From IMG/VR virus record IMGVR_UViG_3300038345_000144: DNA of 64,000 nt. One strand, written 5' to 3'. A program made the position numbers and the translations under genes. The notes under the pieces were generated by a model. It searched no databases. It was not told the DNA's origin and saw only the letters and a list, made by a program, of their open reading frames with translations. Positions 539 through 20,204 of this stretch are shown in pieces. Position 1 is the stretch's first letter. Every line of letters begins with the position of its first letter. This stretch comes from a virus. Its lineage: Duplodnaviria; Caudoviricetes.

Positions 539-1666
539 TTACACAATCTCGTTCATCCACTTAACAACTCTATCCATAGCGGAAAAGTTGAGTGACCTTC
601 TGATATAAGCGTCAGCAGTAACAGGCTCTTCTCTATCATTGTAATAGAAAGAAGTAGCCCACATTCCCCACTTCTGCTTTGCGTGAGCCTTAACGAAGGT
701 ATGTCTATCCATAACCTCGGCATCTGCCTTGCAGTAGTCGAAGTATGTCTCAATAGACTCTACCAATGCGTCAATCTTTGCCTCAACAGCGTCTACCTTC
801 TCCTTGAAGGAAGGAATATAAGTAGCAATCTCGTAGGCATTTCCCTCTCTGATGAACCAGATAATCTTCTTCTCGGAAGGGTTCTTATATGTAGAGCAAT
901 AGTGAGCCTGAATATAGTCAGGCGACTTTACCTTAACTCTATTCCAGTTTCCGTCTACTACTACATATCCCTCTCCGTTAAGAGCGTCTGCCTCGGCGTT
1001 CTCGTTCATCATCTTTGCAGAAGCAATACAGTCCTCAAGGGAGTTCAAATTGTACTCCTTTGGCTTCTTTACTCCAATATCAGTAACCAACTCAACACCA
1101 GTTGCATTACATCTTGTTCCAGTATGATAGATAGTTGTCTTCTCATAAGGAACAACAATAGTGCAGTCAGGTGATACCAACTCAAAGATATATGTGTTTG
1201 CAGGGTCAAGTCTGGAGTAGTCCAATGCTACATCCTTTGCTCCCTCGTCAAACAACTGTCCGAAAGACTTTCCAGTAGAAGTATAGGAACCTACATTAGC
1301 ATAAGCGTCAATAGTACCATTAGTAGCCAACTCCCACTTTCCATTGTAGAAATACAACTTCATAATGGAACCGTCTACCTTCTCCTGTACTCTTGCAGTA
1401 TTCCAGTCAATATGGTCAGCATAAGGCTCACCATAATTACCGAACTTTCTGAAAGGGAAGCATACTACATCAAGAGTGTTGAGGTCCAAAATGATACCTC
1501 TTGCCTCCTGAACGATAGGATTTGCAAAGTCGCATCCTATTCCATAGTTAAATATAGCCCTACCGTCGGCAGACTCCTTTACACCAATTCCCAAGTCCTC
1601 GAAGTCCTGTCTCCAATTAGCAGGGTGGTTTGAAATATAAGTAGCAATTAAAGAATTCTCGTTCAT
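539..1666 (-). CDS. T4 Rnl1-like RNA ligase
   Basis: ARGII, FxKFGN, motif I EKVDGS, FELVSP, EGYVV, RVKVKS; AAGGAG RBS before ATG 1666. Confidence 0.85.
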   Translation of the reverse strand: MNENSLIATYISNHPANWRQDFEDLGIGVKESADGRAIFNYGIGCDFANPIVQEARGIILDLNTLDVVCFPFRKFGNYGEPYADHIDWNTARVQEKVDGSIMKLYFYNGKWELATNGTIDAYANVGSYTSTGKSFGQLFDEGAKDVALDYSRLDPANTYIFELVSPDCTIVVPYEKTTIYHTGTRCNATGVELVTDIGVKKPKEYNLNSLEDCIASAKMMNENAEADALNGEGYVVVDGNWNRVKVKSPDYIQAHYCSTYKNPSEKKIIWFIREGNAYEIATYIPSFKEKVDAVEAKIDALVESIETYFDYCKADAEVMDRHTFVKAHAKQKWGMWATSFYYNDREEPVTADAYIRRSLNFSAMDRVVKWMNEIV

Positions 1667-1695
1667 AACAACATCTCCTTTTGTGTTATGAACAA

Positions 1696-1725
1696 ATGAT
1701 AGCATAACACATCAGGAGTTGTCAA
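1696..1725 (-). promoter_or_regulatory. sigma-A promoter of RNA ligase
   Basis: TTGACA-18-TATCAT with TG extension; -10 bracketed by 9-bp inverted repeat. Confidence 0.65.
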
Positions 1726-2731: not shown

Positions 2732-3961
2732 TTATCCTTCGAGGTCAATAGTTTGATTTGATTTCTTCCTATTTTTAACTAAAAAGATACAAAGTAAGAG
2801 TGAAACTACATAAAGTACCGTAGCCACAGATACTATCAATAAGTAATTGTCATTAGACGCTTTAAGCAGTAACTCGGAGGTATTGTTACCTGTAATACCC
2901 GCAACTGCCCACGCTGACAGGGTGATACCGTGAATTTTTGAGATATTCTTCATACCAAAGCGGGACTCAAGGAGTGCAGGTAGCGTGGAGAAACCACCAC
3001 CGTAGCCCAAATTAACAATCATTAACAGGGCAATAATCAGGAACCCGTCATAGCCCGCAATACCCGTAACCATACAGATTACAATGCAAGATATGAAGAT
3101 AATCAGGTAAACCGTGCTTCTATCCTTCATCTTATCAGACACCGTAGAGTAGCCGATACGACCAAGAGCGTTACATACAGCAGTTACCGACGGTACTACA
3201 CTGATAATGGTAGCCAAGATTGCCATTCCTGCAAAAGTAGTGTTCAAAAACTGCTTCTCATAGGTAATAAGCATCAGACCGCAGTGAATATTCAGGTAGA
3301 AAATGAGCCAAATACCAATGAAGGTCTTGTTCTTAAACAGGGACTTAACCTGAAATTCGTTATTTGTAGCCTTATTTTCGACCCAACCTTCAGGCTTTTT
3401 CAGGAGAAGGTGTCCAGCGAACATCATTATGAAGTAAATACCGCCTAAAATTATAAACATAGCGGAAATACCTACCGTATTCTGGAGATATTCCATTATA
3501 GGAGTAGCAATAGCCTTTGCCAGACCAAATCCCATAATAGAAATGCCCGTTGCCAAGCCCTTATTGTCCTTAAACCATAACATCAAGGTCTTAACAGGGG
3601 TTAAATAACCAATTCCCAGACCAATTCCCATAATACAGCCGTAACAGATATACAGCAAAATCAGGGCTAACGGTCCAGTGCAAAATTTTATAGTAAGTCC
3701 AGTACCAATCATACCTGTTGTGAAGCAAATCGCTGAAATCAACGAGGATTTATGGATGTTTAACTCCACCAATTTGCCCGCAAAGGCGGCAGACATTCCC
3801 AAGAAGAATATTGCCAGTGAAAACGCCCAACCAACAGCAAACGGGGACATCCCTATCGCTGTGGCGATACTCTGCTTAAAGGTACTCCAGCAATAAACCG
3901 TTCCGATTGAACAGTGAATGAGCAACGCTGGAATTGCCGACCTAATCCATTTTTCCATCAA
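2732..3961 (-). CDS. MFS transporter, oxalate:formate antiporter (OFA) family
   Basis: ~12 hydrophobic segments; CSIGTVYCWS, GIGLGIGYLTPVKTLMLWF..KGLATG, GYGGGFSTLPA, IHGITLSAWA. Confidence 0.85.
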   Translation of the reverse strand: MMEKWIRSAIPALLIHCSIGTVYCWSTFKQSIATAIGMSPFAVGWAFSLAIFFLGMSAAFAGKLVELNIHKSSLISAICFTTGMIGTGLTIKFCTGPLALILLYICYGCIMGIGLGIGYLTPVKTLMLWFKDNKGLATGISIMGFGLAKAIATPIMEYLQNTVGISAMFIILGGIYFIMMFAGHLLLKKPEGWVENKATNNEFQVKSLFKNKTFIGIWLIFYLNIHCGLMLITYEKQFLNTTFAGMAILATIISVVPSVTAVCNALGRIGYSTVSDKMKDRSTVYLIIFISCIVICMVTGIAGYDGFLIIALLMIVNLGYGGGFSTLPALLESRFGMKNISKIHGITLSAWAVAGITGNNTSELLLKASNDNYLLIVSVATVLYVVSLLLCIFLVKNRKKSNQTIDLEG

Positions 3962-4422
3962 TCTGCCTCCACTTCTACACCGTTAACTATAATTTTTATC
4001 TCTGAAAAGCCCTCTTCAATGGACGGGTTCTCAAATCTACGAGCAAATTTCTGGATAACTTCCCTACCAACCTTACGGTCACGGAGGTCCTCGTTAGAGA
4101 TACATCTCTCCGTAGGGGTAGCCATTACAACGCCAATAATCTTGGCATTATACTTCTTTCCCAGTGAAATTGCCCTCGACCTGTTATCAACGGTAACATT
4201 TGTGGCGTTAAACCACACATTTTTACCCTCCGAGAGAGCCTTTTCTACTCTTTCATACAACATCTGGAAGACTAATTTATTCTTTGTCTGGTCATTTACA
4301 TCTCCCAGTTCCTCTCTGATACCATCGGAGGAACAAACAACATCGCCGTCCTGCTGGTGAGTGCCAATATACCAGTCTTTGCCACTACCAGGTACGCCAA
4401 TCATAATATACAGGTTTCCCAC
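3958..4422 (-). CDS. PNK-like P-loop kinase (AAA_33 type)
   Basis: MIGVPGSGKD, SSDGIR, NATN, RxxRDRKV, PSIEEGF. Confidence 0.8.
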   Translation of the reverse strand: MGNLYIMIGVPGSGKDWYIGTHQQDGDVVCSSDGIREELGDVNDQTKNKLVFQMLYERVEKALSEGKNVWFNATNVTVDNRSRAISLGKKYNAKIIGVVMATPTERCISNEDLRDRKVGREVIQKFARRFENPSIEEGFSEIKIIVNGVEVEAD

Positions 4423-6591: not shown

Positions 6592-6975
6592 TTACTCTCC
6601 AAATACATATTCAGCAATCTGTCTACGCTCACATTCGGCAATAAATTCATCTTCCGAACTGGCTGAAAATCCTGTTTCACAGCGATTTCCCTTAATATCT
6701 TTATAAAACTGACTGAATGTGTATAGTCTTTTCTTATTTTTCAGGTATTCTACCTTAATAATCACGGATTTATATGATGGGAACTTATAAGTGATACGAC
6801 CCACGCAGGCGGGATTATCATTTTTATCTTCTTCCTCATCTATTTCTTCCTGATTTTCCTCATCATCATCTTCGTCATCATAAGCGGGTTTGATGTATTC
6901 GTTTTTAGAACGGGACTTCGCCCAAACAATATCCTTCTCTTTAAGCCAATTTTCAATCTTAAGAGGTCTTATCAT
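6592..6975 (-). CDS. hypothetical protein with acidic insert
   Basis: 127-aa ORF with RBS and promoter. Confidence 0.6.
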   Translation of the reverse strand: MIRPLKIENWLKEKDIVWAKSRSKNEYIKPAYDDEDDDEENQEEIDEEEDKNDNPACVGRITYKFPSYKSVIIKVEYLKNKKRLYTFSQFYKDIKGNRCETGFSASSEDEFIAECERRQIAEYVFGE

Positions 6976-7012
6976 AGACTTTCCTTTCTTTGGTTACTCG
7001 CTCTCTTTTTTC

Positions 7013-7041
7013 AGTGTAGCATATCCTGGTCAAATTGTAAA
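7013..7041 (-). promoter_or_regulatory. sigma-A promoter
   Basis: TTTACA-17-TACACT with TG extension. Confidence 0.6.
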
Positions 7042-7127
7042 TAAAAAAATCAACTAACTCGGAAAAACTTGTTTATATCATATTACTTAAACAAGTTCAA
7101 GGCAAGTATTACCCAGAAGTTTTAGTC

Positions 7128-7167
7128 AAAAAATGATATAGGCACGGGGAGAACTTCCGTGCCTATA
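7128..7167 (-). terminator. intrinsic terminator of large ncRNA
   Basis: 11-bp stem TATAGGCACGG/CCGTGCCTATA followed by T-tract on minus strand. Confidence 0.75.
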
Positions 7168-7191
7168 CCTATTGAGAGGAGAATACTGTAC

Positions 7192-7793
7192 GATTTGTAC
7201 CTTGAAAACTATATATAAAGAACGAGCCTTCGCTCTACCCGACTATATCTTCACTGTTATTAGGTCACATACGAAGTACAGGCTGTGCAACAGGGAGCTA
7301 CCCTATTACATCTGTACCCCACCTTGCGGTCAAGGTATGGGGGGAGTGCTTACCCCCACCTTTCAGGGACCATTCAGCAATTTCCTAAAGATACATTCGT
7401 AAATGTAAGAAGTTGCCCTTACCCTACTCGGAAAGTTCGCAAGTGTTATATCAGCATTTCTGCTGTTTCACGGCAAATCCCCTTATTGATATTCCCAAAG
7501 GTGTCAAACAGTCATCGGCTAATCGTCCTTTTTGGGTTCTTCTAACCTTTCGGGTTAGCGTCTATTACGGAGACCACTCGCTCTCTACCCTACAATGCAA
7601 TATAGTGAGTGCCATACCTTTTACTTATGACCTTTTGAGTCTTCACCTAACCCATCGCTGAATTAGGTGCGGACCACCTTTACTGGCTATCGTCAGTATC
7701 AGTGCCGAGCACTTTTCGGTATGCCTCGACGAAGGTGGTCAACCCCCGTCTGCATCGAGTTGTAAATTATATACAGATTTCAAGGTGCAAATC
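7192..7793 (-). ncRNA. large (~600 nt) structured ncRNA, ROOL-like candidate
   Basis: No credible ORF; 27-nt terminal arms 7192-7218/7767-7793 pair (24/27 Watson-Crick); many tetraloop hairpins; own promoter and terminator. Confidence 0.7.
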
Positions 7794-7828
7794 TTCAAAT
7801 CGAGGTTGTGCCTCAATTCGATAATGGT

Positions 7829-7857
7829 ATCTTAACACAACACTTTTACCTTGTAAA
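7829..7857 (-). promoter_or_regulatory. strong sigma-A promoter of ncRNA
   Basis: TTTACA-17-TAAGAT, TG extension, A/T-tract UP element 7861-7895. Confidence 0.7.
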
Positions 7858-7889
7858 GTGTTTTTTGAAAATTTTTTCAAATTTTTTTC

Positions 7890-7922
7890 AAAAAATCCCC
7901 CATAGCCTAAAAACTACGGGGG
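7890..7922 (-). terminator. intrinsic terminator after lipoprotein gene
   Basis: CCCCCGTAG/CTATGGGGG stem plus T-tract. Confidence 0.65.
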
Positions 7923-7931
7923 AGAAATTGT

Positions 7932-8486
7932 TTAATCAGTTTTAATTAAAGCCTGAACATCGGCAAGTTCTGTATTTATATAATACCTATAAAAGAACTG
8001 GGTATCATAAGCATTATAGATGTCTCTGGTATAATTTGTGTCCTGATGTTCGCAGTCAGGGCATCCAATCCACGAAATCTCTAAAACATATACATTTCCG
8101 TCATTCGGGAAGATGTCCGACAACTTATATCTTTGACCATTCAGGTTCGCAATATCATATTCGCAGTAGTCATCAAAAGCACTTCCAAGAGGGGTACTGA
8201 CTATGTAATTGTACTGGGCAGTGAATTCCTCAACAGGAATATCTCCTCTTATAAGTCCCAAAACCTTACCTTGTGTGCAAATCAGGTATGAGGGAACCCA
8301 GTTGAGTCCGACACCATCTTCGTTCATCATCCATAAGTCAAAGTCTGACTTGTTTTTAGGATTATCACACACAAAAACGTGAGATTGCACCATTTCGTGA
8401 TGAGGTTCGTAGGTGTTTGGTCTGCCACACGAACATAGCCCGACCACTATTGCCAATGTTAAAAATAATGCTGTTATCTTTCTCAT
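7932..8486 (-). CDS. lipoprotein with circularly permuted thioredoxin/TlpA-like domain
   Basis: Signal peptide with lipobox LCSC; WVPSYLI..GKV...RG precedes NLNGQRYKLSD...WIGCPDC. Confidence 0.6.
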   Translation of the reverse strand: MRKITALFLTLAIVVGLCSCGRPNTYEPHHEMVQSHVFVCDNPKNKSDFDLWMMNEDGVGLNWVPSYLICTQGKVLGLIRGDIPVEEFTAQYNYIVSTPLGSAFDDYCEYDIANLNGQRYKLSDIFPNDGNVYVLEISWIGCPDCEHQDTNYTRDIYNAYDTQFFYRYYINTELADVQALIKTD

Positions 8487-9544
8487 AAGTTGTCCTCTTC
8501 GGTGGAGATAATCTCCATAATGTCCTCGGAGTCTATTCTCAAGAAGGAGGTCTTACCATCTGGGCAGTTACCATAATAGAGGGTAAACTCATCGTCCTTT
8601 ACAAACAGCATCCTGCTTAAAAGAGCAACAGATACCTGATAGGTAAACGGCTCGCAAGCCTCCGAACTAATCTTATAAATAAACTCTGAATTATCAACCT
8701 TTAAGAATACACCCTTATCGGAGAATACCAGTCTGGGTTCATAGTTGAACAACTTACTGGCGTTAACAGCCTGCATAAATGTATTCTTTGAAATCTTTAC
8801 GGTATGTTCAGGTCCACTCTGGAACAAATCAGCAAAATCATCATACTGATAGTTGTCCATTTCCTCGGTGTGAGCATAAGCACGATAAGTTAACTTATCA
8901 GTAGTAACGACAATCTTCTTACGCTTGTCCTTTGACTTGACATCTACCTTACCCTTGCCAATCTTGTTGAGTATCTCAACTGTTCTGACATCGAGGATAA
9001 TTCTTTCACTAAAGAAAAACTTTGCAATAAGGGCTACATTATCAGTATCGGTAGCCATAATGCCTCTGGGTCCAAAATAGATGTACTTATAGCACTCTTC
9101 TACAAAGTCCTTTTTAATAACCGCCTTACAAACAGGCAGAACTGTTGCAATATTACTAAAATCTATCTCATCACCAGTAGCATCCTGCGGATGAGGCATA
9201 CCTTTACCACTCTGGATAGGATAAATAGGCAACTTACACTTCATAATAGCCGACTTAATCCCAAGTGACTTATCATTCATTGTAAGTTCAATAGCACCTT
9301 CGCCACAAGACTTAATTATGCTGTAAAAGTTCTCAAAGTTAATGAGGCAATCAAAAGACTCATCACACTCTGCAATCTTTACCTTCATATTATGAACTGT
9401 TGACCAAGTATAGCCATAAAGATAACCGTCCTCGGTAATCAACTGAAGTAATGAAGCAAGGGGCTTACTAATTCCCTCTGTCTTTGAGGTTGCCAATCCT
9501 AAAAGTCCAAGACATTCTTTTAATGTTGTTGCGTCTGTTGTCAT
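8483..9544 (-). CDS. dnaN: DNA sliding clamp (beta subunit)-like protein
   Basis: 353 aa; IMATD motif; three-domain length; adjacent to polymerase and clamp loader. Confidence 0.6.
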   Translation of the reverse strand: MTTDATTLKECLGLLGLATSKTEGISKPLASLLQLITEDGYLYGYTWSTVHNMKVKIAECDESFDCLINFENFYSIIKSCGEGAIELTMNDKSLGIKSAIMKCKLPIYPIQSGKGMPHPQDATGDEIDFSNIATVLPVCKAVIKKDFVEECYKYIYFGPRGIMATDTDNVALIAKFFFSERIILDVRTVEILNKIGKGKVDVKSKDKRKKIVVTTDKLTYRAYAHTEEMDNYQYDDFADLFQSGPEHTVKISKNTFMQAVNASKLFNYEPRLVFSDKGVFLKVDNSEFIYKISSEACEPFTYQVSVALLSRMLFVKDDEFTLYYGNCPDGKTSFLRIDSEDIMEIISTEEDNL

Positions 9545-9554
9545 TTTGTACTCC

Positions 9555-9806
9555 TTATTGTATGTTTATGTCTTGTATAAATAACTTAAGTAACATCTCA
9601 CCAAACGACTTGTCAGTGTTGCTGTCCATACACTCGGTATCGGCGTACCACTTTCCGCTTTCCGTATCTTTATAGATAACATATTCGCCAAATCCGATGT
9701 TTGCTGACCAGTAGATAGTGAAGCCTTCGACGTTTTGTTCTTCATTCTTAAAAACTGATACCTCATCTATTTGTAAGTTTTCAATTTTTAATCTTCGCTC
9801 GGACAT
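9555..9806 (-). CDS. hypothetical protein
   Basis: 83 aa; WSANIGFGEY...DTECMD. Confidence 0.65.
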   Translation of the reverse strand: MSERRLKIENLQIDEVSVFKNEEQNVEGFTIYWSANIGFGEYVIYKDTESGKWYADTECMDSNTDKSFGEMLLKLFIQDINIQ

Positions 9807-10303
9807 TACTTAACTCCTGAACTACCAAATCCACCACCCTGTCTGTCAGACTCGATAGCAGATACATTAGAAATCTCTGTAATTGTTGCCTCTACATAAG
9901 AAGCCACTACCATCTGGGCAATTCTATCACCCTTTCTAATGATGTAAGTGCCTCTTTGGTCTGCCTTTGCTTCTGATACCTCAATCATATTTGTAGCGGT
10001 ATGTAGAGGAGAAGTGTTTTCCATAATAACACATACTTCATTACGATAACCACTATCAATCGTACCAGGGGCATTAGGAATTCTTAACGCTGTCTTCAGA
10101 GAAATTCCACTTCTGGGTCTAATCTGAACCTCTTTGCCAACAGGAATTGCCATCTTCAATCCAGTAGGGATTAACTTAACATCACCAGGGGTTAGGATAA
10201 TCTCTTCGGCTGATGATAAATCCATTCCTGCATCACCTTCGTGAGCGTAAAAAGGTAATTTAGCATCGGGTCTACACTTTTCAATCAAAATCTCTGTACT
10301 CAT
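9806..10303 (-). CDS. dut: trimeric dUTPase
   Basis: AGMDL, RPRSG, GTIDSGYR, GDRIAQ, GGFGSSG. Confidence 0.95.
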   Translation of the reverse strand: MSTEILIEKCRPDAKLPFYAHEGDAGMDLSSAEEIILTPGDVKLIPTGLKMAIPVGKEVQIRPRSGISLKTALRIPNAPGTIDSGYRNEVCVIMENTSPLHTATNMIEVSEAKADQRGTYIIRKGDRIAQMVVASYVEATITEISNVSAIESDRQGGGFGSSGVK

Positions 10304-10336
10304 TTTTTACTCCATTTAATATAAAATTACTGTAAT

Positions 10337-10365
10337 ATTATAACAAAAAATATGATTTTTGTGAA
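10337..10365 (-). promoter_or_regulatory. sigma-A promoter
   Basis: TTCACA-17-TATAAT with TG extension. Confidence 0.6.
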
Positions 10366-10374
10366 GAATTTTAC

Positions 10375-11010
10375 TTACTTTTTAGGTAGTTGATATACGC
10401 TAATCCAGTGGTAAATAGTAGCAGTTCCGCACTTATACTTTTCTGCTAATTCACCCAATGTCATAGAATTGTAATCTTTCTCAAAGACTGCCTTCTCTGG
10501 CATTTCAGTAACAGATTTCTTCGGCTTGTTCTGTCGAGGGATTTCATAATAATCCAACCACTTATAGAAAGTATTTTGAGCACAGCCTAATTCCTCAAGT
10601 ATCTGGTGAACACTCTTCTTACTATTATAGAGTTTTAAGAGTTTCTCTTTACTCGGCATCCTCTTATACTTAAAATGGACGCTATGAATTTGGTCATACA
10701 CCTCTGATAACTCATACTTCTTAATCAGTGCTTCTACAATGTCTTTTCTCTCGCCTGACTCTTTACTGATTTGCTTAACTGATAACCCTGATTTGACATA
10801 TTTAGTCAAGGTGGATTTATTCAGTTTCGTGTTTTTCAATGCACGGTCATAATTTCTATTGTGAATTCGCTCTATTCCATAAAAATCAATCCACTGCATC
10901 GCTCGTTGTCGAGTAACGCCATATGCGTCACCGATTTGCTGAAGTGTCATAAACTTTTTACAATATAAGTCTTGTAACACCTCTTTCGATGGTCTGTTTC
11001 CTTCCAACAT
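10375..11010 (-). CDS. multi-HTH DNA-binding protein
   Basis: Four ~55-aa repeats (PSKE.L..LY...T...I...G.....WI..Y.I); AAGGAG before ATG 11010. Confidence 0.7.
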   Translation of the reverse strand: MLEGNRPSKEVLQDLYCKKFMTLQQIGDAYGVTRQRAMQWIDFYGIERIHNRNYDRALKNTKLNKSTLTKYVKSGLSVKQISKESGERKDIVEALIKKYELSEVYDQIHSVHFKYKRMPSKEKLLKLYNSKKSVHQILEELGCAQNTFYKWLDYYEIPRQNKPKKSVTEMPEKAVFEKDYNSMTLGELAEKYKCGTATIYHWISVYQLPKK

Positions 11011-11053
11011 ATCTTTATACTCCTTTCGTATTGTTGGCTCTCTTTCTTTTGTA

Positions 11054-13807
11054 TTAAACCACAGGAAGTCCCTGTAATTCGCTTTCAATATCGAGTTCTT
11101 CACCGTACCACTTGTCCGAGGAAACGACATCGCAAGTGATAGGGATAGTAAGTGTAGGCTTTGCGGCGGTCTCCATATCATTCGCAAATCTCGCACCTAC
11201 AAATCTCGCATATCTTAATGGAGTCTCAATCAAGATTTCATCGTGAACAGGAATGATTGCATAAGCCATATGTCTAATCAATTCCTCGTCATTATGTATC
11301 TTAATCAAGGCTAACTTACTCATATCTGCGGCACTACCCTGAACTCGGCTGTTGATGATTTCTCGCTCTGCCGCCGCAATTCTGGCGTTGTTATCTACAA
11401 CTTCAATATCCTCAAATACGAGCAACTTATCAATGAACTTCTGCCTTTCTTTTGCATACATCGTTGCCATCTTATTGATGTAGTTTTCAGCATCGGCAGT
11501 AGGTACTTTCATCTTGTTATTTCTAACATAACTGAACTTTTCTTCACACCATTCAGGTGCTCTGTCAGGATGTTTCTTTGTAATCTTACACTTTGTAATA
11601 TAGTGGAACTCATAAGAAGGGAGGTTATAGTTAGGAAGTCTTCTCTTTCTACCCCAAAGAGTAGTAACATAACCCTTCTCCTTAACATCCTTCTTGGACT
11701 GTTCCTCAAAAGGCTTAATGCAGACGAACGCCGCATATACATTGTCCTTAATCTCTTGAGCCTTATCCATATTTTTCTTCTGCAACTCTTTGTTGATGGA
11801 ACCATCTTCATTGAGAGGCTGTCCGAAAATCTGTTCAGCAATAGATTTAGCACCACGACCATACATAATACCCAAGAGGATTTTCTTTGCGTCGCCTCTT
11901 GTATTCTTACCGTCCTTATAGGTGTCTTTTTCACCATCGGCAAGTTTATCGTAGTCGTAGTCTTCAGGATTTATATTGGAATAGTCCAAGTCCTCAAAGT
12001 TCTGCTTATCGTCCTCTTCACCTGTCTTGAGTAAGGCATAATACCACTTACCATTTTCGTGTTGCTTAATAGGAGCACCCTTTGGGAAGTGTTCAAGACA
12101 GTGCTTATAAGGCTTATTGAAGGAAATAGAAGCGATTTCTGCATACAAATCCTTACCGTCCTCGTATGCTTTCAACATAACAGGGTCGGCACAAAGTTGT
12201 GACAATACACGGGGTTCCTGACCTGAATAGTCAGCACCCTGAATAATTCTACGAATTCGGCAGAGAATTTCCTTACCTTCGTCACCTTCAAGTGCCAGTA
12301 AAGCCTTGAGGTCCTTAAGTCTGGTGGCTCTTACTACGCAACCGTTTGCAAGAACTTCGCCTTCAGCAACGCACTCAACCCACTTCCAAGTACCATCTTC
12401 CATTCTGACTTCTTCGCATCTGTCAAAGACATAGCCCTTATCAGAACGCATTTTAGCATTACGGTAAGTTACCTGTCCTACATACATCTTACGAATATCC
12501 TCGTTATGGGACGGAATATTCTGGAGGTTGATAGGTTTACTACTGGACATTCTACCTGTTCTTGCACCGTTTGAATTAAAGTGCGTATGAACTCGTCCAT
12601 CAGTAAAGACAATATTAGGGATATTATCAATATAAGTAGAGATTAACTTCTTTGCCTTACGATAATCAGAAATAGCGTGGCAAACAGGGTGTTTCTCTGC
12701 GAAATATGCCAAAATGTCACTGTCTACACATCTTTCCTTCTTATCCTTCAAGTCGTGCTTGAGTCCAAGAATATCATAGAAAAGAATAGCCAACTGGTCA
12801 TCTGAACCAACATTGATAGGGTCTTCAAGTCCCTTGTTGTGGTGCAATCTCCAATCGTCAATTAAATCCTGGTATGAGTTAATGGCTTCATAACACTTTT
12901 CAAGAGCAACATCCAAGTCCTTATTGTACTTCTGGGAAAGAACCTTAACATAATCCAAATCTACGGCAACGCCCTTTTCCTCAAGGTCAACAACGACATC
13001 AATCATAGGAATTTCGATGTTTCTGTAAAGCCAGTTAAGTTTAACCATATCTTCACGCTCTGTATTGCAAAGATACTTCTTCTGGAATTCATACAAATCC
13101 CAAGTATCAATAGCGTCGTGAGAAGCATAAAGGTATGCGAAGGCAATAGGGATTAAGTTCCAAGTAACCTTACCGTGTAAGTAATCCGAGAAACTCTTTT
13201 CTACTGTATGGCTGATGTACTTACCGTGTAAACCTTTAAGGTCGTGGTCCTCATTCTCGTTCAAGAGAGTAGCACCAACCTGTGTCTCCCACCAGCAAGA
13301 CAAATTAACACCTAACCAACGCTTGATAATTCGGAGGTCGAATGGAGCGTTATGGAACAGGTTTTTAGTAGTAAGTCGCTTCATTTCTTCAGCAACCTGC
13401 TCTCTGGTCAACTGTGGCTCAATTCTCGCCTGCGTGATGTAGTCAATATGGTTAATAGGCACATAGACAGGTTTTTCTTCAGGGAAATACATTGAGAGTC
13501 CGACAATATCGCACCTCAAAGGGTCAAGTCCCATAGTCTCCGTATCTATTGCTACGATGCCATAACGGTTAGCGTGGTCAATATAATCGTGTAACTCTTG
13601 CAGGTCTGTAATACATCTGTAATCATCTTTATGTTCACCGAGGTTAGTCTCGATGTCTTGTCTAATTTCTTCAATAATATCAAGAAGGCTATTACCCTTT
13701 GGCTTACCCTTCTTCTGTTCTTTCTTCATTCTTTCCAGAGCCTTTTTATCATCGACTTTGGATTTTACGCCAGCATTTAGTTTAATCAATGACATCTCAC
13801 GCCTCAT
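11054..13807 (-). CDS. polA: family A DNA polymerase with 3'-5' exonuclease, no 5'-3' exonuclease, with insertions
   Basis: ExoI DTET, HNAPFD, YASHDA; TGRMSS..INLQNIP; motif A ADYSGQEPR; motif B AKKILLGIMYG; motif C VHDE. Confidence 0.95.
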   Translation of the reverse strand: MRREMSLIKLNAGVKSKVDDKKALERMKKEQKKGKPKGNSLLDIIEEIRQDIETNLGEHKDDYRCITDLQELHDYIDHANRYGIVAIDTETMGLDPLRCDIVGLSMYFPEEKPVYVPINHIDYITQARIEPQLTREQVAEEMKRLTTKNLFHNAPFDLRIIKRWLGVNLSCWWETQVGATLLNENEDHDLKGLHGKYISHTVEKSFSDYLHGKVTWNLIPIAFAYLYASHDAIDTWDLYEFQKKYLCNTEREDMVKLNWLYRNIEIPMIDVVVDLEEKGVAVDLDYVKVLSQKYNKDLDVALEKCYEAINSYQDLIDDWRLHHNKGLEDPINVGSDDQLAILFYDILGLKHDLKDKKERCVDSDILAYFAEKHPVCHAISDYRKAKKLISTYIDNIPNIVFTDGRVHTHFNSNGARTGRMSSSKPINLQNIPSHNEDIRKMYVGQVTYRNAKMRSDKGYVFDRCEEVRMEDGTWKWVECVAEGEVLANGCVVRATRLKDLKALLALEGDEGKEILCRIRRIIQGADYSGQEPRVLSQLCADPVMLKAYEDGKDLYAEIASISFNKPYKHCLEHFPKGAPIKQHENGKWYYALLKTGEEDDKQNFEDLDYSNINPEDYDYDKLADGEKDTYKDGKNTRGDAKKILLGIMYGRGAKSIAEQIFGQPLNEDGSINKELQKKNMDKAQEIKDNVYAAFVCIKPFEEQSKKDVKEKGYVTTLWGRKRRLPNYNLPSYEFHYITKCKITKKHPDRAPEWCEEKFSYVRNNKMKVPTADAENYINKMATMYAKERQKFIDKLLVFEDIEVVDNNARIAAAEREIINSRVQGSAADMSKLALIKIHNDEELIRHMAYAIIPVHDEILIETPLRYARFVGARFANDMETAAKPTLTIPITCDVVSSDKWYGEELDIESELQGLPVV

Positions 13808-14601
13808 ACTTTCTTTCTATACTTCATAATTAAATAGTCTATAATGTTATCTATGTCAATAATGCCCTTCTTTACCGAACAGTCTAAATAAAAGCAATCA
13901 TTGATAATACTAATCAACTCTGCCTCCGAACGGTATTTCAATAAACCCTGCAAGTTACTGATACGATAAGGGTTCATACCTGCCGTCTTGCCTTGCTTAA
14001 TCTTCAATAAATCTTGACAATTCGTAGTCAACACCGCCATTATGCTGATTGCTGACTCTTCTATGTTAGGGAGGGACTTCCCCATAACAAATCGGTCTAC
14101 CCAAAGGTAAATGTCATTTGAGGTATCGGCTATCTTATACTCGCCGTCGCTCAAATTATAGATTTTCAGGTTGTTTATGATAGTTCCCAAGTCGTTATTG
14201 CTCTTACGCACAAAGTTACGGGCTTTCACCTCGTCCATATCGCTATGTTTCATTACATAAGGCACATAATCGTTCTCTAACTCTATAAAACAATCCTTAT
14301 TATTCTTGTAAACAGCAGTTCTCTTATCCACCGACTCGGTATATATCAAGGTATATCCACGCTGTTGCTTAAAGATTTCCTCATCAAGTTTAGGCATATA
14401 GATTACATTCAGAGTAACCTTCTTCAAAAGACCTACGCCTGTCTTGATTGTACCGCTATAATTAACATTATTGGCTCCGATGGCTTCCTTGAAACGCTTT
14501 ACATAAATATCCACTAACCCGCTATCTATGGTAACAAGGCAGTAAATATGCTTTGGAGACTTTAGGCTTTCCTTAAATTCTTTGCCATTCATTACTCTCA
14601 C
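13804..14601 (-). CDS. clamp-loader delta-like subunit
   Basis: DKRT motif, length, position in DnaX operon. Confidence 0.5.
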   Translation of the reverse strand: MRVMNGKEFKESLKSPKHIYCLVTIDSGLVDIYVKRFKEAIGANNVNYSGTIKTGVGLLKKVTLNVIYMPKLDEEIFKQQRGYTLIYTESVDKRTAVYKNNKDCFIELENDYVPYVMKHSDMDEVKARNFVRKSNNDLGTIINNLKIYNLSDGEYKIADTSNDIYLWVDRFVMGKSLPNIEESAISIMAVLTTNCQDLLKIKQGKTAGMNPYRISNLQGLLKYRSEAELISIINDCFYLDCSVKKGIIDIDNIIDYLIMKYRKKV

Positions 14602-15175
14602 CTCGCATATCTAATTCCCAGTTAACTATAAACTGCTTCTTATTAAGGGCTTTCAGGTTTTTAGCGGAATTGTACTTACTGCAAATGAGGTACTCCCTCT
14701 CCAGGTTTTCCCCACCCTTAATCCTCTCTAAAAGACGATTGCAGAGTACCGTAAAGAATACATCAAAATCGAACTCTTCAGAATACTGGAAGTTGTCAAC
14801 TGCACGGAGCATCTTATAGGAAAAATAAGGTAACTGTCCCTCAAAATCACAATATCCAGCCTCGGTAGGCTCCATTCTCTGAACTACACATCTTGACTGG
14901 ATAGAACGGGGCAGGTTCATCAGGTTCCTGCAAGTAAGTACCATATGCTGGTTCTCATTCTGCTCTAAAAAGGTCAATAAAGCACTAAATGATGCAGGCG
15001 ACCAGTTATCTATATCTATAAAGGCATAATCTGTATGTTTATCCAGTTCCCTAATATCTCCAACATTACCAGTTTCTACCCATACAAAATCGACAGGAAG
15101 GCTCTTAACATACTCCTTCTTGCCACTGTATTTAGCACCAACTAATATTAAATTATTAGGTAACTCTTGGGTCAT
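14573..15175 (-). CDS. clamp-loader delta-prime-like subunit
   Basis: Degenerate GAKYSGKK, SALLTFLE, LPRSIQSRC. Confidence 0.6.
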   Translation of the reverse strand: MTQELPNNLILVGAKYSGKKEYVKSLPVDFVWVETGNVGDIRELDKHTDYAFIDIDNWSPASFSALLTFLEQNENQHMVLTCRNLMNLPRSIQSRCVVQRMEPTEAGYCDFEGQLPYFSYKMLRAVDNFQYSEEFDFDVFFTVLCNRLLERIKGGENLEREYLICSKYNSAKNLKALNKKQFIVNWELDMRGESNEWQRI

Positions 15176-16056
15176 ACAATAAGTCTCGCTATAATCATAT
15201 TCTTCGGGGTATCATCGTATCTAATCTCGTTAGTGATGGTCAAAAGAGTTTCAACCAACTTGAGATTATCACACTTCAGGCAATAGTCTAAAAACTGCCT
15301 AATGAACAGGTGTAACTCATATCCGTTGTTATACACCTGTTCCACCAGTTCAATAATCTTTAGCCTATTATCATCGTTATAAGCGTCATACAACTCCTGC
15401 ATAACATCATCGGACACGATATTAAGGGCTTTACAAATATCTTCATCGGAGGTTCCGAACAGGAGGCACTTATCAAGGTTTGTGAGTGCCTGACGCATAT
15501 TTCCATTAGCGGATTTAGCAATATACTCAATTCCCTTGTCAGTAATGGTAATGTTCTCTTTAGAGCATACATAGGTCAAACGATTGATGATGTTTGCCTC
15601 CGACATAGGGGTAAAATTAAATCTCTGAACACGGCTCATAATGGTATTAGGTATCTTTTGAACATCCGTGGTGCAGAGAATGAAAATAGAGTGCTCTATT
15701 GCCTCCTCAAGGGTCACAAGCATAGCAGACCAAGCCTGTGCTGACAATGTATGGCACTCGTCAAGTACAAACACTTTATACGCCTTAACAAGGGGCTTTG
15801 TTTTAGCAATTTCAAGTATGTCCTTAATAGACTCTACGCCGTTGTGTGATGCACAGTCTATCGGGAATATCTCTCCGTCTACCATAGACGCAAAAATGTT
15901 GGCACAGGTTGTTTTACCCGTACCAGCAGGACCAGTGAATAGCATCGCATTGGGGAATATATCTTCCTCAATTTCTTTATTCAATACTTTGCAAATTACT
16001 TCTTGTTGTATTACATCCTCGAACTTTTGTGGTCTGTATTTGTTTGCTAATGTCAT
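15172..16056 (-). CDS. dnaX: clamp-loader gamma/tau-like ATPase
   Basis: LANKYRPQKF, GPAGTGKTT, LDECH, TLEE, IMSR. Confidence 0.9.
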   Translation of the reverse strand: MTLANKYRPQKFEDVIQQEVICKVLNKEIEEDIFPNAMLFTGPAGTGKTTCANIFASMVDGEIFPIDCASHNGVESIKDILEIAKTKPLVKAYKVFVLDECHTLSAQAWSAMLVTLEEAIEHSIFILCTTDVQKIPNTIMSRVQRFNFTPMSEANIINRLTYVCSKENITITDKGIEYIAKSANGNMRQALTNLDKCLLFGTSDEDICKALNIVSDDVMQELYDAYNDDNRLKIIELVEQVYNNGYELHLFIRQFLDYCLKCDNLKLVETLLTITNEIRYDDTPKNMIIARLIV

Positions 16057-16065
16057 TTTACTCCT

Positions 16066-16356
16066 TTAAGCGATTTCCCAGTGATACTCGGCTTCCGCTA
16101 TATCATTAAGTATTATTGGGGGTATTTCTATCGTTATACCATCAATATTAACCGCCTTAAGGCTCTCATATTTGAGAGTATCGTAATTGAAGTGGTTTAT
16201 CACTTCATCAAAGGTAATAAAAGCAGGATTAAAGTCTCCTACCCATACACACATCATATTATAGTTAGCATCACAAACTGACCACCCACCGTCAAATCCG
16301 TCACAGTGAGCAAAGTATTTACCACTTGCAGTTTTCCATAAATCATTATTACCCAT
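16066..16356 (-). CDS. hypothetical protein
   Basis: 96-aa ORF downstream of promoter. Confidence 0.55.
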   Translation of the reverse strand: MGNNDLWKTASGKYFAHCDGFDGGWSVCDANYNMMCVWVGDFNPAFITFDEVINHFNYDTLKYESLKAVNIDGITIEIPPIILNDIAEAEYHWEIA

Positions 16357-16383
16357 AGAAAAAGCCCCTTATAGATATGCCTT

Positions 16384-16412
16384 ATTATAACACTCTATAA
16401 GGGGTCTGTAAA
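16384..16412 (-). promoter_or_regulatory. sigma-A promoter of replication operon, nested in hairpin
   Basis: TTTACA-17-TATAAT, TG extension; 11-bp arms 16365-16375/16394-16404. Confidence 0.7.
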
Positions 16413-16430: not shown

Positions 16431-18305
16431 TTAGAGAACTCTGTCAAGAAGGTCACAAACGGCTGATGTAAACTCGTCCATATATCTCTTGCAGTAGTGA
16501 ACCTTTGCGGTATGAACGGAAGGCTCAATGTACTTTCTGTTCTGTTCGTCTGTTACGATAATGCTGTGTCCACCATCAAAAATTCTGAATGTATCAGAAG
16601 CGGAAGGAACAACATTGTACTCACCATAATGAGCGTCACCATCGAAAAGAACTACAAGATAGTTTTCTGCGTTTGTCTTTCTATGCCTCTTGAGCAAATC
16701 AGGAATGTTTGTCATCTGCTTTGTTGCTCTATCCGTCATATTTTCCTTGAAAATACTGTTTTCTTGGAAAGAACAGAACTTTCTATCTATTGTTGTCCAT
16801 TCTTCGATATAACTGGAAATAGTGATAATATCGAAAGTAAATGCGGGATAGTTCTGTGCCAGTCTTTCAAGAGTTCTGATAAAGACATTCATTCTGGTAT
16901 CGTTATTTCTGAAAGACCACGATGTATCGAGGAAGAATGTGATATGAGTAGCACCAAAGCGTCTTCCGTTGCCCTGTGTGTTAGGTCTTTCCCAAACCTT
17001 CCAATCGTCTCTTGTAAGGAGGTTACGATAGTTCATTACACCGCTATATGCCGAAATTGCGGCACTTCTCTGCTGTGTCTTACGCAACTTCTTTTCAAGA
17101 ATGTTACGGAGTCTCGTTTCGAGTTCAGGGTCAGTAAACTTCTCAAAGGTATCGTTAAGAACGCTATCAACGGCACTCTTCATTTCGTCCTTTGTAAAAT
17201 CGTCAACATCTAACTCATCAATATCTGCGAGTGTTTCTTCGAGTTCAGGGTCAATACCCTCGTCCTCTTCATTTTCTACACGGCTCTTATCCTCTTCTTC
17301 GCTCTCTTCTTCGTTAGAGCCTTCGGAGTTTTCGGGGTCCTCTTCATCACCCTCATCACCCTCGTCCTCTGTGGCATCGGGATTGTAAGAAACATCGTCT
17401 TCCTCGTCATTTTCTTCGTTCTCTTCATCAGAAGAACCATTGGAAGACTCGTCATCTTCTTCGTTCTCGTCAGACTCTTCATCAGAACCCTCGCTGGAGC
17501 CTTCAGAACCATTGTCCTCGTCCTCGGAACCTTCGTCCTCATTATCCTCGCTCTGCTCGTTAGAAGACTTATTCTGCTCGTTCTCCTCGTCTTCCTCGGA
17601 GTTGTTGTTGGACTCTGTGGACTCGTTGTTCTCCTGCTCATCAGACTCTTCGGACTGATTGGACTGGCTCTGCTGTTCCTGCTCCTGCTGTCTCTTCTCT
17701 TCCTGCTCCTTCTCCCAATCCTCTGTGAAATCGTTATAGAAATCCATAACAGCCTGTGTGTACTGCTTAACCTTCCACTCATCTGCGTTTGCGGAGAGGT
17801 ATCTGTACTCCATAATAATATTCATAAGTCTTGTAAGCCACTTTGTTTCGCCCTTGTGGAACCTTACGAGATTGTAAAAAGCGGAAAATGCCGTTCTTGC
17901 TTCTTCGCCCTTGTAGTTGTTGAGCAAAACAATATTTCTTCTGAAATTAACTTCGAGAAAATAGTTCTTCAGAAGGGTCTCAATACGCTCGTCCTCAAAG
18001 ACATTAAGAACTCTGTGGTGGTCCTTATTCTCTTCGGTCTCAACGATTGCCGTAGGAGTAAGGATTGCGTGTGCTACTTCGTGATAGAGGAGACCACGGA
18101 TAACGCTGTACTGAATGTTGCCAGCAGGAACATCCTTGAGCATACGCTGAATTGTAGGAAATGAAACAACAATCTTATCCTTGTAAATGTCATAAGATGT
18201 AGACATTGACTCACGGCTTAATTCGTGAGGAATACCTCTACCAGAATAGAAACTAATAGGCAGTGTATCGAACATCCTTGAAACTTCTTCGAATGTAACC
18301 TTCAT
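16431..18305 (-). CDS. CobT-like metallopeptidase-motif + acidic linker + VWA protein
   Basis: YHEVAH, NVFEDERIE, long D/E/N/S linker, MIDAS DTSWS, FDGD. Confidence 0.8.
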   Translation of the reverse strand: MKVTFEEVSRMFDTLPISFYSGRGIPHELSRESMSTSYDIYKDKIVVSFPTIQRMLKDVPAGNIQYSVIRGLLYHEVAHAILTPTAIVETEENKDHHRVLNVFEDERIETLLKNYFLEVNFRRNIVLLNNYKGEEARTAFSAFYNLVRFHKGETKWLTRLMNIIMEYRYLSANADEWKVKQYTQAVMDFYNDFTEDWEKEQEEKRQQEQEQQSQSNQSEESDEQENNESTESNNNSEEDEENEQNKSSNEQSEDNEDEGSEDEDNGSEGSSEGSDEESDENEEDDESSNGSSDEENEENDEEDDVSYNPDATEDEGDEGDEEDPENSEGSNEEESEEEDKSRVENEEDEGIDPELEETLADIDELDVDDFTKDEMKSAVDSVLNDTFEKFTDPELETRLRNILEKKLRKTQQRSAAISAYSGVMNYRNLLTRDDWKVWERPNTQGNGRRFGATHITFFLDTSWSFRNNDTRMNVFIRTLERLAQNYPAFTFDIITISSYIEEWTTIDRKFCSFQENSIFKENMTDRATKQMTNIPDLLKRHRKTNAENYLVVLFDGDAHYGEYNVVPSASDTFRIFDGGHSIIVTDEQNRKYIEPSVHTAKVHYCKRYMDEFTSAVCDLLDRVL

Positions 18306-18339
18306 TGTTGTAATCTCCTCTCAATTGATTTACACTGAT

Positions 18340-18369
18340 ATTATAATATATAAATTATAATATTGTCAA
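18340..18369 (-). promoter_or_regulatory. sigma-A promoter
   Basis: TTGACA-18-TATAAT within AT palindrome. Confidence 0.65.
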
Positions 18370-18440
18370 GGGTGAGAACCATAAAATAAGCAAAAATAAA
18401 GGAAAGTTTTTAGGCTTTCCTTACTTTATTCTCCACTCAA

Positions 18441-18680
18441 TCACTTATAGATTAAATTCTCGGCTCGTTGTATATTTAACGCCGTAGCCTTATTGTTCTT
18501 CAGGTCCGTTATAAAGGTCTTGAGAAAGACTCTATCGCTGTCTGTAAGCCTTGTATCGCTTATAATTGCCTTGCGTATATCCGTTATCAGAATTTCCTTT
18601 CCAATGGACGAGAGATAGCGTTTTAGACCATATACGAGAAATGGAATAGCAAGGATAAATACAATAGTTAAAACAATCAC
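18441..18680 (-). CDS. small membrane protein
   Basis: N-terminal hydrophobic helix; GGAG RBS. Confidence 0.6.
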   Translation of the reverse strand: MIVLTIVFILAIPFLVYGLKRYLSSIGKEILITDIRKAIISDTRLTDSDRVFLKTFITDLKNNKATALNIQRAENLIYK

Positions 18681-18696
18681 TGGTTACAATCTCCTA

Positions 18697-18933
18697 TCAG
18701 TTATTAAGTGCTTCCCACTGTGCAAGCATTTCTGCTCTCCTGCCTTCAGGATAATCTGAAGTACCATAATACAGTTCTCCGTCTGCATCACGGTTCTCGT
18801 CTACTGTGGTCTCTACGGATGTTTCATATACATTAGCAGAAACCTCATTACCCTTAATAACAGTACAACCTAATACAGCACTTAAACCCAAAATAGCGGT
18901 AAGGATTGCTACTGGAATTATAACCTTCTTCAT
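18697..18933 (-). CDS. small secreted or lipoprotein-like protein
   Basis: MKK + hydrophobic stretch ending VLGC. Confidence 0.6.
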   Translation of the reverse strand: MKKVIIPVAILTAILGLSAVLGCTVIKGNEVSANVYETSVETTVDENRDADGELYYGTSDYPEGRRAEMLAQWEALNN

Positions 18934-18998
18934 TGTATTTTCCTCTCTCAACAAACGCCTTATTTTATTATGTTTCTCTCACTTGCGAATGTAAGCAA

Positions 18999-19027
18999 AT
19001 CATAGCAAATTTTTATGGCGATGTAAA
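18999..19027 (-). promoter_or_regulatory. sigma-A promoter
   Basis: TTTACA-17-TATGAT, TG extension. Confidence 0.6.
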
Positions 19028-19193: not shown

Positions 19194-20204
19194 TTAGATA
19201 CAAGCCTCGAAGAGGTCTTCGGGTGAAAGTTCGAACTTCTTAATGCAATCACATCTGTCTACGAGAGGACCAGGAAGAGGGCATACACCAAAGTCTTCAA
19301 GATAAAGGTTCATTGTACCGATAATCTTAAAACCTTCCTTGATGTGAATACGCTGACCCATAAAGTCAATGTAGTCCTTATTGTCGAGAATACCCTGCAA
19401 GAAACGAACTGTATCGAACGGAAGGAGGTTAATCTCGTCGAAAAGGATAGGCTTGCCAAGTTCCATAGCCGTCCAGAGAGCAGACTTACCGAACTTCGGC
19501 TGACCCTGTTCAAAGTCAAAATCTCTAAAGAGGTCAACAGGGAGCATACTTGAGTTGCATACGATAGTGTTCTCTGTAAGGGACTTACCAAGAGTGGTCT
19601 TACCTGTACCAGCGTCACCATAGTAAACTGTGAGACGCTTGTTAATGCGTGTGGAAGGCTTTGTAATGCCTGCCTGTGCAAACTTTGTTACAATCTGCTG
19701 AAGTTCAGGAGACTCTACGAGGGAGCAAATCTTACCGAAATCGGGGCTGTTCTTAACCTCAAAGTAGTTCCTGATAAATGCCGCCTTATTATCTGACCAC
19801 AGGAATGTGTTAATCATACGATAAGAAGGCTTATAACTTGTTTCCTTGAAGAAGTCAACAAACGCTCTTGATGCTTCAACGCCAAGCGTTCTATTGATGT
19901 TCTTAATAACAGAACCTACTGTAACCTGCTCAACAGCCTTATCAATAGGGTATCTCTCATCAAGTTCGGCTCCTGACAGACCAAGAAGCAGGAAGTTTGA
20001 GTTCAGATTGCTCTTTACTGCTTCGAGGGTTAAAGTCTTGCTATTAACCTTCTTTACGAGGTCATAGGTTGCCTTTACTGCGGCATACTCCATATCTGTA
20101 CTTACAAACTTTGTAACCTTGTCCTTATCAATAAGGTTGGTCTCATAAGAACCGTCTGTGTTCTTGATGATGTAATATGTGGGGTTAATTGTTACCTTTG
20201 CCAT
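19194..20204 (-). CDS. MoxR/CobS-like AAA+ ATPase
   Basis: GDAGTGKT, LFDEINL, IIGTMN, PLVDR; partner of VWA gene. Confidence 0.85.
   Translation of the reverse strand: MAKVTINPTYYIIKNTDGSYETNLIDKDKVTKFVSTDMEYAAVKATYDLVKKVNSKTLTLEAVKSNLNSNFLLLGLSGAELDERYPIDKAVEQVTVGSVIKNINRTLGVEASRAFVDFFKETSYKPSYRMINTFLWSDNKAAFIRNYFEVKNSPDFGKICSLVESPELQQIVTKFAQAGITKPSTRINKRLTVYYGDAGTGKTTLGKSLTENTIVCNSSMLPVDLFRDFDFEQGQPKFGKSALWTAMELGKPILFDEINLLPFDTVRFLQGILDNKDYIDFMGQRIHIKEGFKIIGTMNLYLEDFGVCPLPGPLVDRCDCIKKFELSPEDLFEACI

Follow-up and report, generated by a model that had tools for sequence, protein, structure and literature searches.

What does a large phage keep in a 956-bp stretch that has no protein-coding gene and lies directly behind its replisome operon? 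The stretch occupies positions 6976 to 7931 of a 64,000-nucleotide sequence from a member of the Caudoviricetes (IMG/VR record IMGVR_UViG_3300038345_000144), here referred to as the window, in which all large ORFs lie on the minus strand. A preliminary description, made from the letters alone, had seen in this gap (put at 950 bp) a transcription unit for an ornate RNA of about 600 nt and had left two options for it, a ROOL-like RNA or a new class. Here, we report that the structured RNA belongs, over its full length, to the known ROOL family, of which it is a real but ordinary example. We are highly confident in the explanation taken as a whole, namely, a bona fide ROOL RNA of a large phage that would be made as its own transcript, has a conserved fold, and, by homology, is expected to form a cage. 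What is new is a divergent member; the family is already well described, and its own model detects this RNA with a score three times the threshold.

Identity and size of the RNA

We searched the whole 64-kb window with cmscan against the 4227 families of Rfam 15, a check that had been suggested in the preliminary description, and obtained a single match, to ROOL (RF03087). The RNA is delimited as follows.

7205..7783, minus strand: ROOL RNA core (Rfam RF03087), from cmscan, model positions 1-574 of 574
7192..7793, minus strand: ROOL including a lineage-specific extension of the closing helix P1, from the minimum free energy (MFE) fold, which pairs 7793-7767 with 7220-7192

The match (7783 to 7205) is untruncated, and its score of 324.7 bits (E = 5.7e-74) lies far above the gathering score of 99.1. 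This result bears out the ROOL-like option and refutes that of a new class. None of the other 4226 Rfam families, including GOLLD, OLE, group I and II introns, RNase P, and tmRNA, matched the window at its gathering score, and ARAGORN found neither a tRNA nor a tmRNA in it. Because the same search found GOLLD in another locus (L005), a GOLLD RNA in the window would have been detected.

The RNA is 579 nt long as matched by the model and 602 nt long when the extended P1 is included, compared with 556 to 672 nt (median, 596) for a set of 52 ROOLs and a family mean of 581 nt (PMC5737381). For comparison, we retrieved 53 IMG/VR loci with a conserved ROOL motif. All 53 gave a ROOL match, at 213 to 350 bits and at full length in 50, and the score of the window ROOL falls in the upper half of this range.

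A predicted stand-alone transcription unit

A protein search with the neighboring clamp identified a near-identical relative, L054, where a 98%-identical clamp is encoded on a 178-kb Logan contig; its gene order agrees with that of the window, and a ROOL (318 bits) occupies the corresponding position. In the window, the gap is bounded on the minus strand by a 184-aa gene (7932-8486), at its stop codon, and by a 127-aa ORF (6592-6975), at its start codon, and there is no minus-strand ORF of at least 40 aa between 6975 and 7932; gene calling left the corresponding gap of L054 likewise empty. The following signals were predicted around the RNA.

7896..7923, minus strand: intrinsic terminator of the upstream 184-aa gene, 12-bp stem and U-tract (MFE, -19.7 kcal/mol; z = -5.1)
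7858..7895, minus strand: A/T-tract block upstream of the -35 hexamer, by direct reading of the sequence
7829..7857, minus strand: sigma-70-type promoter TTTACA-17-TAAGAT with a TG extension, by consensus scan
7795..7821, minus strand: 5' leader hairpin with an 11-bp stem (MFE, -13.3 kcal/mol; z = -4.8)
7128..7169, minus strand: intrinsic terminator of the ROOL unit, 13-bp stem 7169-7157/7147-7135, 9-nt loop, and U6 tract ending at 7128 (MFE, -22.1 kcal/mol; z = -4.6)
7013..7041, minus strand: promoter-like site for the downstream 127-aa ORF, TTTACA-17-TACACT with a TG extension

The first of these terminators is predicted to insulate the RNA unit from the replisome operon, and the A/T-tract block that follows is a possible UP element. 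The promoter coincides with the one proposed previously and places the transcription start near 7822; in L054, it differs by one spacer base. Between this predicted start and the ROOL closing helix stands the leader hairpin, whose sole change in L054 turns a G-C pair into G-U. At the other end, a 22-nt spacer separates the structured RNA from the terminator of the unit, which is identical in L054 and had been recognized, as 7128-7167, in the preliminary description; our consensus scan missed it because the scan's loop limit is 8 nt and the loop here has 9. The promoter-like site at 7013-7041 marks the end of the RNA unit. Both the coordinates and the signals given in the preliminary description are confirmed by this analysis. 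Read together, these signals suggest that the ROOL would be made as its own transcript of about 690 nt, from the promoter at 7829-7857 to the terminator at 7128-7169, with limits set by sequence signals.

A conserved fold under selection

The 609 nt from 7800 to 7192 fold with an MFE of -209.7 kcal/mol, compared with -166.3 ± 7.4 kcal/mol for shuffled sequences (z = -5.8). The closing helix, described earlier as 27 nt long, is formed in this fold by 7793-7767 and 7220-7192, with about 25 pairs and two bulges. When the Rfam consensus pairs (nested pairs only, taken from the cmscan structure line) were projected onto the window RNA, 130 of 159 were standard, 25 were nonstandard, and 4 fell on deletions. 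At least in the P17/P18 arm, where the MFE fold is a clean 9- plus 10-bp hairpin, the misses are due to a register shift.

Over the 579 nt, the RNA of the window is 95% identical to that of L054, with 28 differences and one insertion. Five pairs are changed on both sides with pairing kept, as follows.

7745/7733, minus strand: compensatory pair, G-U to C-G
7601/7247, minus strand: compensatory pair, A-U to U-A
7531/7499, minus strand: compensatory pair, A-U to G-C
7524/7506, minus strand: compensatory pair, G-U to U-A
7523/7507, minus strand: compensatory pair, A-U to G-C

Another three to five changes in L054 are one-sided and keep the pair. Two seemingly broken pairs, 7533/7497 and 7532/7498, adjoin the 1-nt insertion and, by eye, re-pair one position over as U-A and G-C. 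The compensatory substitutions imply ongoing selection on the structure.

For the family as a whole, we scored a structure-blind MAFFT alignment of 52 ROOLs with the projected structure, using as controls 500 shuffles and structures slid by 1 to 3 columns. Standard pairs were formed in 76.1% of cells, compared with 54.5 ± 0.4% in shuffles and 40 to 47% in slid structures, a percentage inflated somewhat by the derivation of the structure from the first row of the alignment. The counts of cells changed on both sides, which extend across 50 independent sequences and are free of this inflation, were 1407 observed, 593 shuffled, and 379 to 655 slid, and the covariation scores were 0.488, 0.177, and 0.11 to 0.19, respectively. 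The observed values were reached by none of the 500 shuffles, and two-sided changes occurred in 120 of the 130 pairs. Covariation among homologues, the other check proposed at the outset, was found both across the 52 ROOLs and against L054. We conclude that the window RNA has the conserved multi-junction secondary structure of ROOL and that this structure is under selection.

Most of the internal helices listed in the preliminary description have a place in this structure. CACCTAA/TTAGGTG, CTAACC/GGTTAG, CAGCA/TGCTG, and GAGC/GCTC are Rfam consensus hairpins that covary across the family; pairing occurs in 87% of cells for CAGCA/TGCTG and in 97% for GAGC/GCTC, with covariation at every pair of both. 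ACCTTG/CAAGGT is formed in the MFE fold, in an arm that differs greatly among family members, and TACATT/AATGTA fits the predicted fold and lies in the family's variable linker. The longest of the proposed helices, GACCACCTT (7740-7732) with AAGGTGGTC (7680-7672), is present in the sequence as 9 bp but is not conserved. It competes with two consensus hairpins, and we rejected it as a conserved element because three of its nine pairs are lost in L054 and because in other ROOLs 40% of cells pair, which is the background level. We take it to be a chance pairing or, at most, an alternative fold.

Architecture by homology with solved ROOLs

Cryo-EM has shown that the solved members of the ROOL family assemble on their own, with no protein, into closed hollow cages of dihedral symmetry (PMC12286853; reviewed in PMC12990946). 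The env-120 and Efa ROOLs are octamers about 280 Å across, and the Lsa ROOL is a hexamer; kissing loops and A-minor contacts act within each half-shell, and an adenosine-stacking contact and a 4-bp symmetric kissing loop act between the halves (PMC12286853, PMC12990946). ROOL was described with three pseudoknots (Weinberg et al. 2017, PMC5737381), and P10 and P13 appear in the cryo-EM model. Three features of the window RNA can be set beside this architecture.

7378..7423, minus strand: variable linker of 46 nt, aligning to the unpaired long loop of the Rfam model
7392-7407, minus strand: linker hairpin UACAUU-UACG-AAUGUA, inside the variable linker
7273..7320, minus strand: long hairpin in the MFE fold, P17/P18 in the Kretsch numbering by position

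In solved ROOLs, the variable linker is disordered inside the cage (PMC12286853), and by analogy the linker at 7378-7423 would correspond to that segment; linker length in the 52 ROOLs ranges from 42 to 94 nt (median, 56.5). The apical loop of the long hairpin, UAGCU at 7296-7300, contains the self-complementary AGCU. Mapped by position, it is a candidate for the symmetric kissing loop between half-cages (L18/L15). A census of this loop in the 52 ROOLs found UAGCU in about a third of them. As a family-wide test of the kissing loop, a uniformly palindromic L18 did not give a clean result and was set aside, the loops varying among UAGCU, UCGCU, CGACG, and others.

By homology with the solved ROOLs, the window ROOL should form a hexameric or octameric cage. 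In the sequence of events that we envisage, the transcript would fold into the multi-junction ROOL architecture indicated by the covariance-model match and the covariation, and 6 or 8 copies would then self-assemble without protein into a hollow cage of dihedral symmetry, held by kissing loops and A-minor contacts, with the variable linker pointing inward. In solved members, the copy number (6 or 8) is set by an apical stem, which is variable among ROOLs, so that of the window ROOL is not predictable from sequence. Published ideas on the role of ROOL include encapsulation of tRNAs, ribosomes, or other macromolecules. Our best guess, a weak one drawn from the genomic setting at the head of a block with Pnk/Rnl1 RNA-repair genes and then tRNAs, is that the cage might sequester or shield translation-related RNA during infection.

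Genomic setting

The RNA lies between replication genes and an RNA-repair module, as follows.

15172-16056, minus strand: clamp loader, upstream of the RNA
11054-13807, minus strand: family A DNA polymerase (PolA), upstream of the RNA
10375-11196, minus strand: HTH-rich protein with matches to PHROG HNH endonucleases, upstream of the RNA
replisome region upstream of the RNA, minus strand: dUTPase
8483-9544, minus strand: clamp-like processivity factor, upstream of the RNA
7932-8486, minus strand: 184-aa gene, directly upstream of the gap
3958-4422, minus strand: Pnk-like kinase, downstream of the RNA
2732-3961, minus strand: 409-aa protein between the kinase and the ligase, with PHROG 2034 (unknown function) as its sole match
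539-1705, minus strand: T4 Rnl1-type RNA ligase, downstream of the RNA

The replisome operon pairs a family A polymerase with a clamp-like processivity factor and a clamp loader (8483-16056). As listed, the HTH-rich protein overlaps the 3' end of the polymerase ORF; the L054 version is shorter (211 aa), and this protein may be a homing-endonuclease-like insertion after polA. PolA is at most 37% identical to that of any INPHARED phage, and its nearest relatives, in Clostridium, Streptococcus, and Bacillus phages, suggest a host among the Bacillota. The clamp has only four relatives among 5.8 billion proteins. Searches of IMG/VR for related loci with the clamp and PolA found no relatives, and a search among contigs for the exact Rnl1 protein of the window gave no match.

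Downstream of the RNA, five small ORFs without a family match precede the repair genes, and the kinase and ligase lie 2.8 to 6.7 kb from the ROOL. The repair genes of L054 are at 15127-15591, 17885-19012, and 19320-20198, with a second kinase paralogue (54% identical) beyond the ligase. There, the counterpart of the 409-aa protein is 98% identical and has a match to the MFS_1 transporter family, which is odd in a phage RNA-repair block.

The preliminary description had set the RNA beside a replisome operon and not beside tRNAs. This is half true: the replisome genes do lie upstream, but an RNA-repair module comes downstream, and a tRNA follows in L054. ARAGORN detected no tRNA in the window, that is, within 7.2 kb downstream or 56 kb upstream of the ROOL; in L054, however, a tRNA-Gln starts 8.3 kb downstream of the ROOL, just before the end of the contig. 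The usual link between ROOL and tRNAs is thus weakened here without being lost. In the majority of the IMG/VR ROOL loci examined there are tRNA genes, frequently no more than about 1 kb from the ROOL; tmRNA or drum RNA is present as well in some, and GOLLD in one. In L005, ROOL and GOLLD lie 4 kb apart in a single tRNA array (7558-8229 and 12269-12780). The tRNA array of L021, on a 402-kb IMG/VR contig with a ROOL, contains a short partial match to OLE (2050-2137; model positions 437-594), which scores 53.4 bits where the gathering score is 50 and is probably due to chance or fragmentary.

In two more distant loci (L055 and L056; clamp 32 to 33% identical), a tRNA and not a ROOL directly follows the pair formed by the clamp and the ~180-aa gene, and in a third (L057; clamp 51% identical) the 431 nt of sequence available after this pair contain no ROOL. 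Among these loci, only the window and L054 thus have a ROOL at precisely this place. In L055, the clamp region is closely followed by a DUF2828/DUF7788 protein with tRNAs on either side (14936-16408). Overall, the context of the window ROOL is mildly unusual, a stand-alone unit after a replisome operon, not far from the tRNA array and adjacent to RNA-repair genes, and this placement would be compatible with a role in translation or related to tRNAs.

Alternative explanations

Could the RNA belong to a new class of large ornate RNAs that merely resembles ROOL? Nucleotide similarity is low: among the IMG/VR members compared, the best blastn hit has about 73% identity over 239 nt, and neither the RNA unit nor the first 20 kb of the window had a blastn match among INPHARED phages. 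Yet the covariance-model match is full length at three times the gathering score, the ROOL pairs covary, and conserved blocks stand in register with those of 51 other ROOLs. These blocks comprise GAUA, GUAG, CAG, AAUAGAC, and CGAAG, conserved in the ROOL alignment, as well as CUGAAUG, UGAAAG, and GGUAA, the invariance of which carries no information because the comparison set was selected by these three. We consider a new class to have almost no chance of being correct. No more credible is a small protein gene, or a cis-regulatory leader of the downstream genes, in place of a stand-alone RNA. The plus strand of the gap does hold ORFs of 40 to 86 aa, including those of 76 to 86 aa at 7172-7402, 7285-7545, and 7413-7661, but 1-nt indels between the window and L054 fall inside them, so they are unlikely to be coding. 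The transcribed strand lacks any ORF of at least 40 aa, gene calling found none in the gap of L054, and a strong predicted terminator and a separate promoter stand between the RNA and the next gene.

Two further explanations accept a ROOL but differ on its present state or role. The RNA might be a decaying relic that has lost its function: it stands apart from a tRNA array, the usual ROOL location, and 25 of its consensus pairs are nonstandard. Against decay, the RNA is full length and scores among the upper half of the IMG/VR ROOLs, the predicted promoter and terminator are intact and, save for the one spacer base, the same in L054, and its substitutions relative to L054 are compensatory; we judge a relic very improbable. 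Less improbable, although still unlikely, is that in this huge-phage lineage the ROOL has split from the tRNA array as an insulated unit heading an RNA-maintenance block (small ORFs of unknown function, "heal-and-seal" Pnk/Rnl1 genes, and tRNA array), where its cage would work with repair. Two unrelated IMG/VR loci (L047 and L052) encode homologues of both the kinase and the ligase within a few kilobases of a ROOL, and a third (L017) encodes only that of the kinase there, a recurrence that would then reflect a functional link. If this were true, the cage might, for example, protect tRNAs or serve as a decoy for anticodon nucleases of the host, and the presence of Pnk/Rnl1 near ROOL would be more than shared residence in tRNA islands. 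We favor the account of a bona fide phage ROOL.

Comparison with known systems

As a full-length ROOL, the window RNA shares with the family described by Weinberg et al. (2017; PMC5737381; RF03087) its length (579 to 602 nt, against a mean of 581 nt), the full model with its conserved blocks, hairpins, multi-stem junctions, and variable internal linker, and carriage by a phage. It differs in lying outside a tRNA array, directly after a replisome operon, in having a predicted promoter and terminator of its own and a leader hairpin, in the extension of its closing helix to about 25 pairs, in a linker of 46 nt at the short end of the range, and in a sequence with no more than the ~73% identity over 239 nt noted above to the IMG/VR members compared. 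GOLLD (RF02032) is likewise a large ornate RNA of phages and prophages that occurs near tRNAs and forms an RNA-only cage, but it has its own sequence and fold, exceeds 800 nt, builds cages of 10 to 14 copies, and has no match in the window. OLE (RF01071) is also a large (~600 nt) ornate bacterial RNA that forms homo-oligomers; unlike the window RNA, it is chromosomal, belongs to extremophilic anaerobes, forms a dimer, and works with Oap proteins, and it too has no match in the window.

Only a few natural RNAs, ROOL among them, are known to form cages that are free of protein and exceed a ribosome in size. The copy described here leaves that picture unchanged and offers a clean case for experiment, with defined limits, its own predicted signals, and a divergent sequence. 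It adds a data point for guesses at function that are based on context and provides a compact construct for assembly work. That it was called from the letters alone also shows that an ornate RNA of this kind can be recognized in raw sequence.
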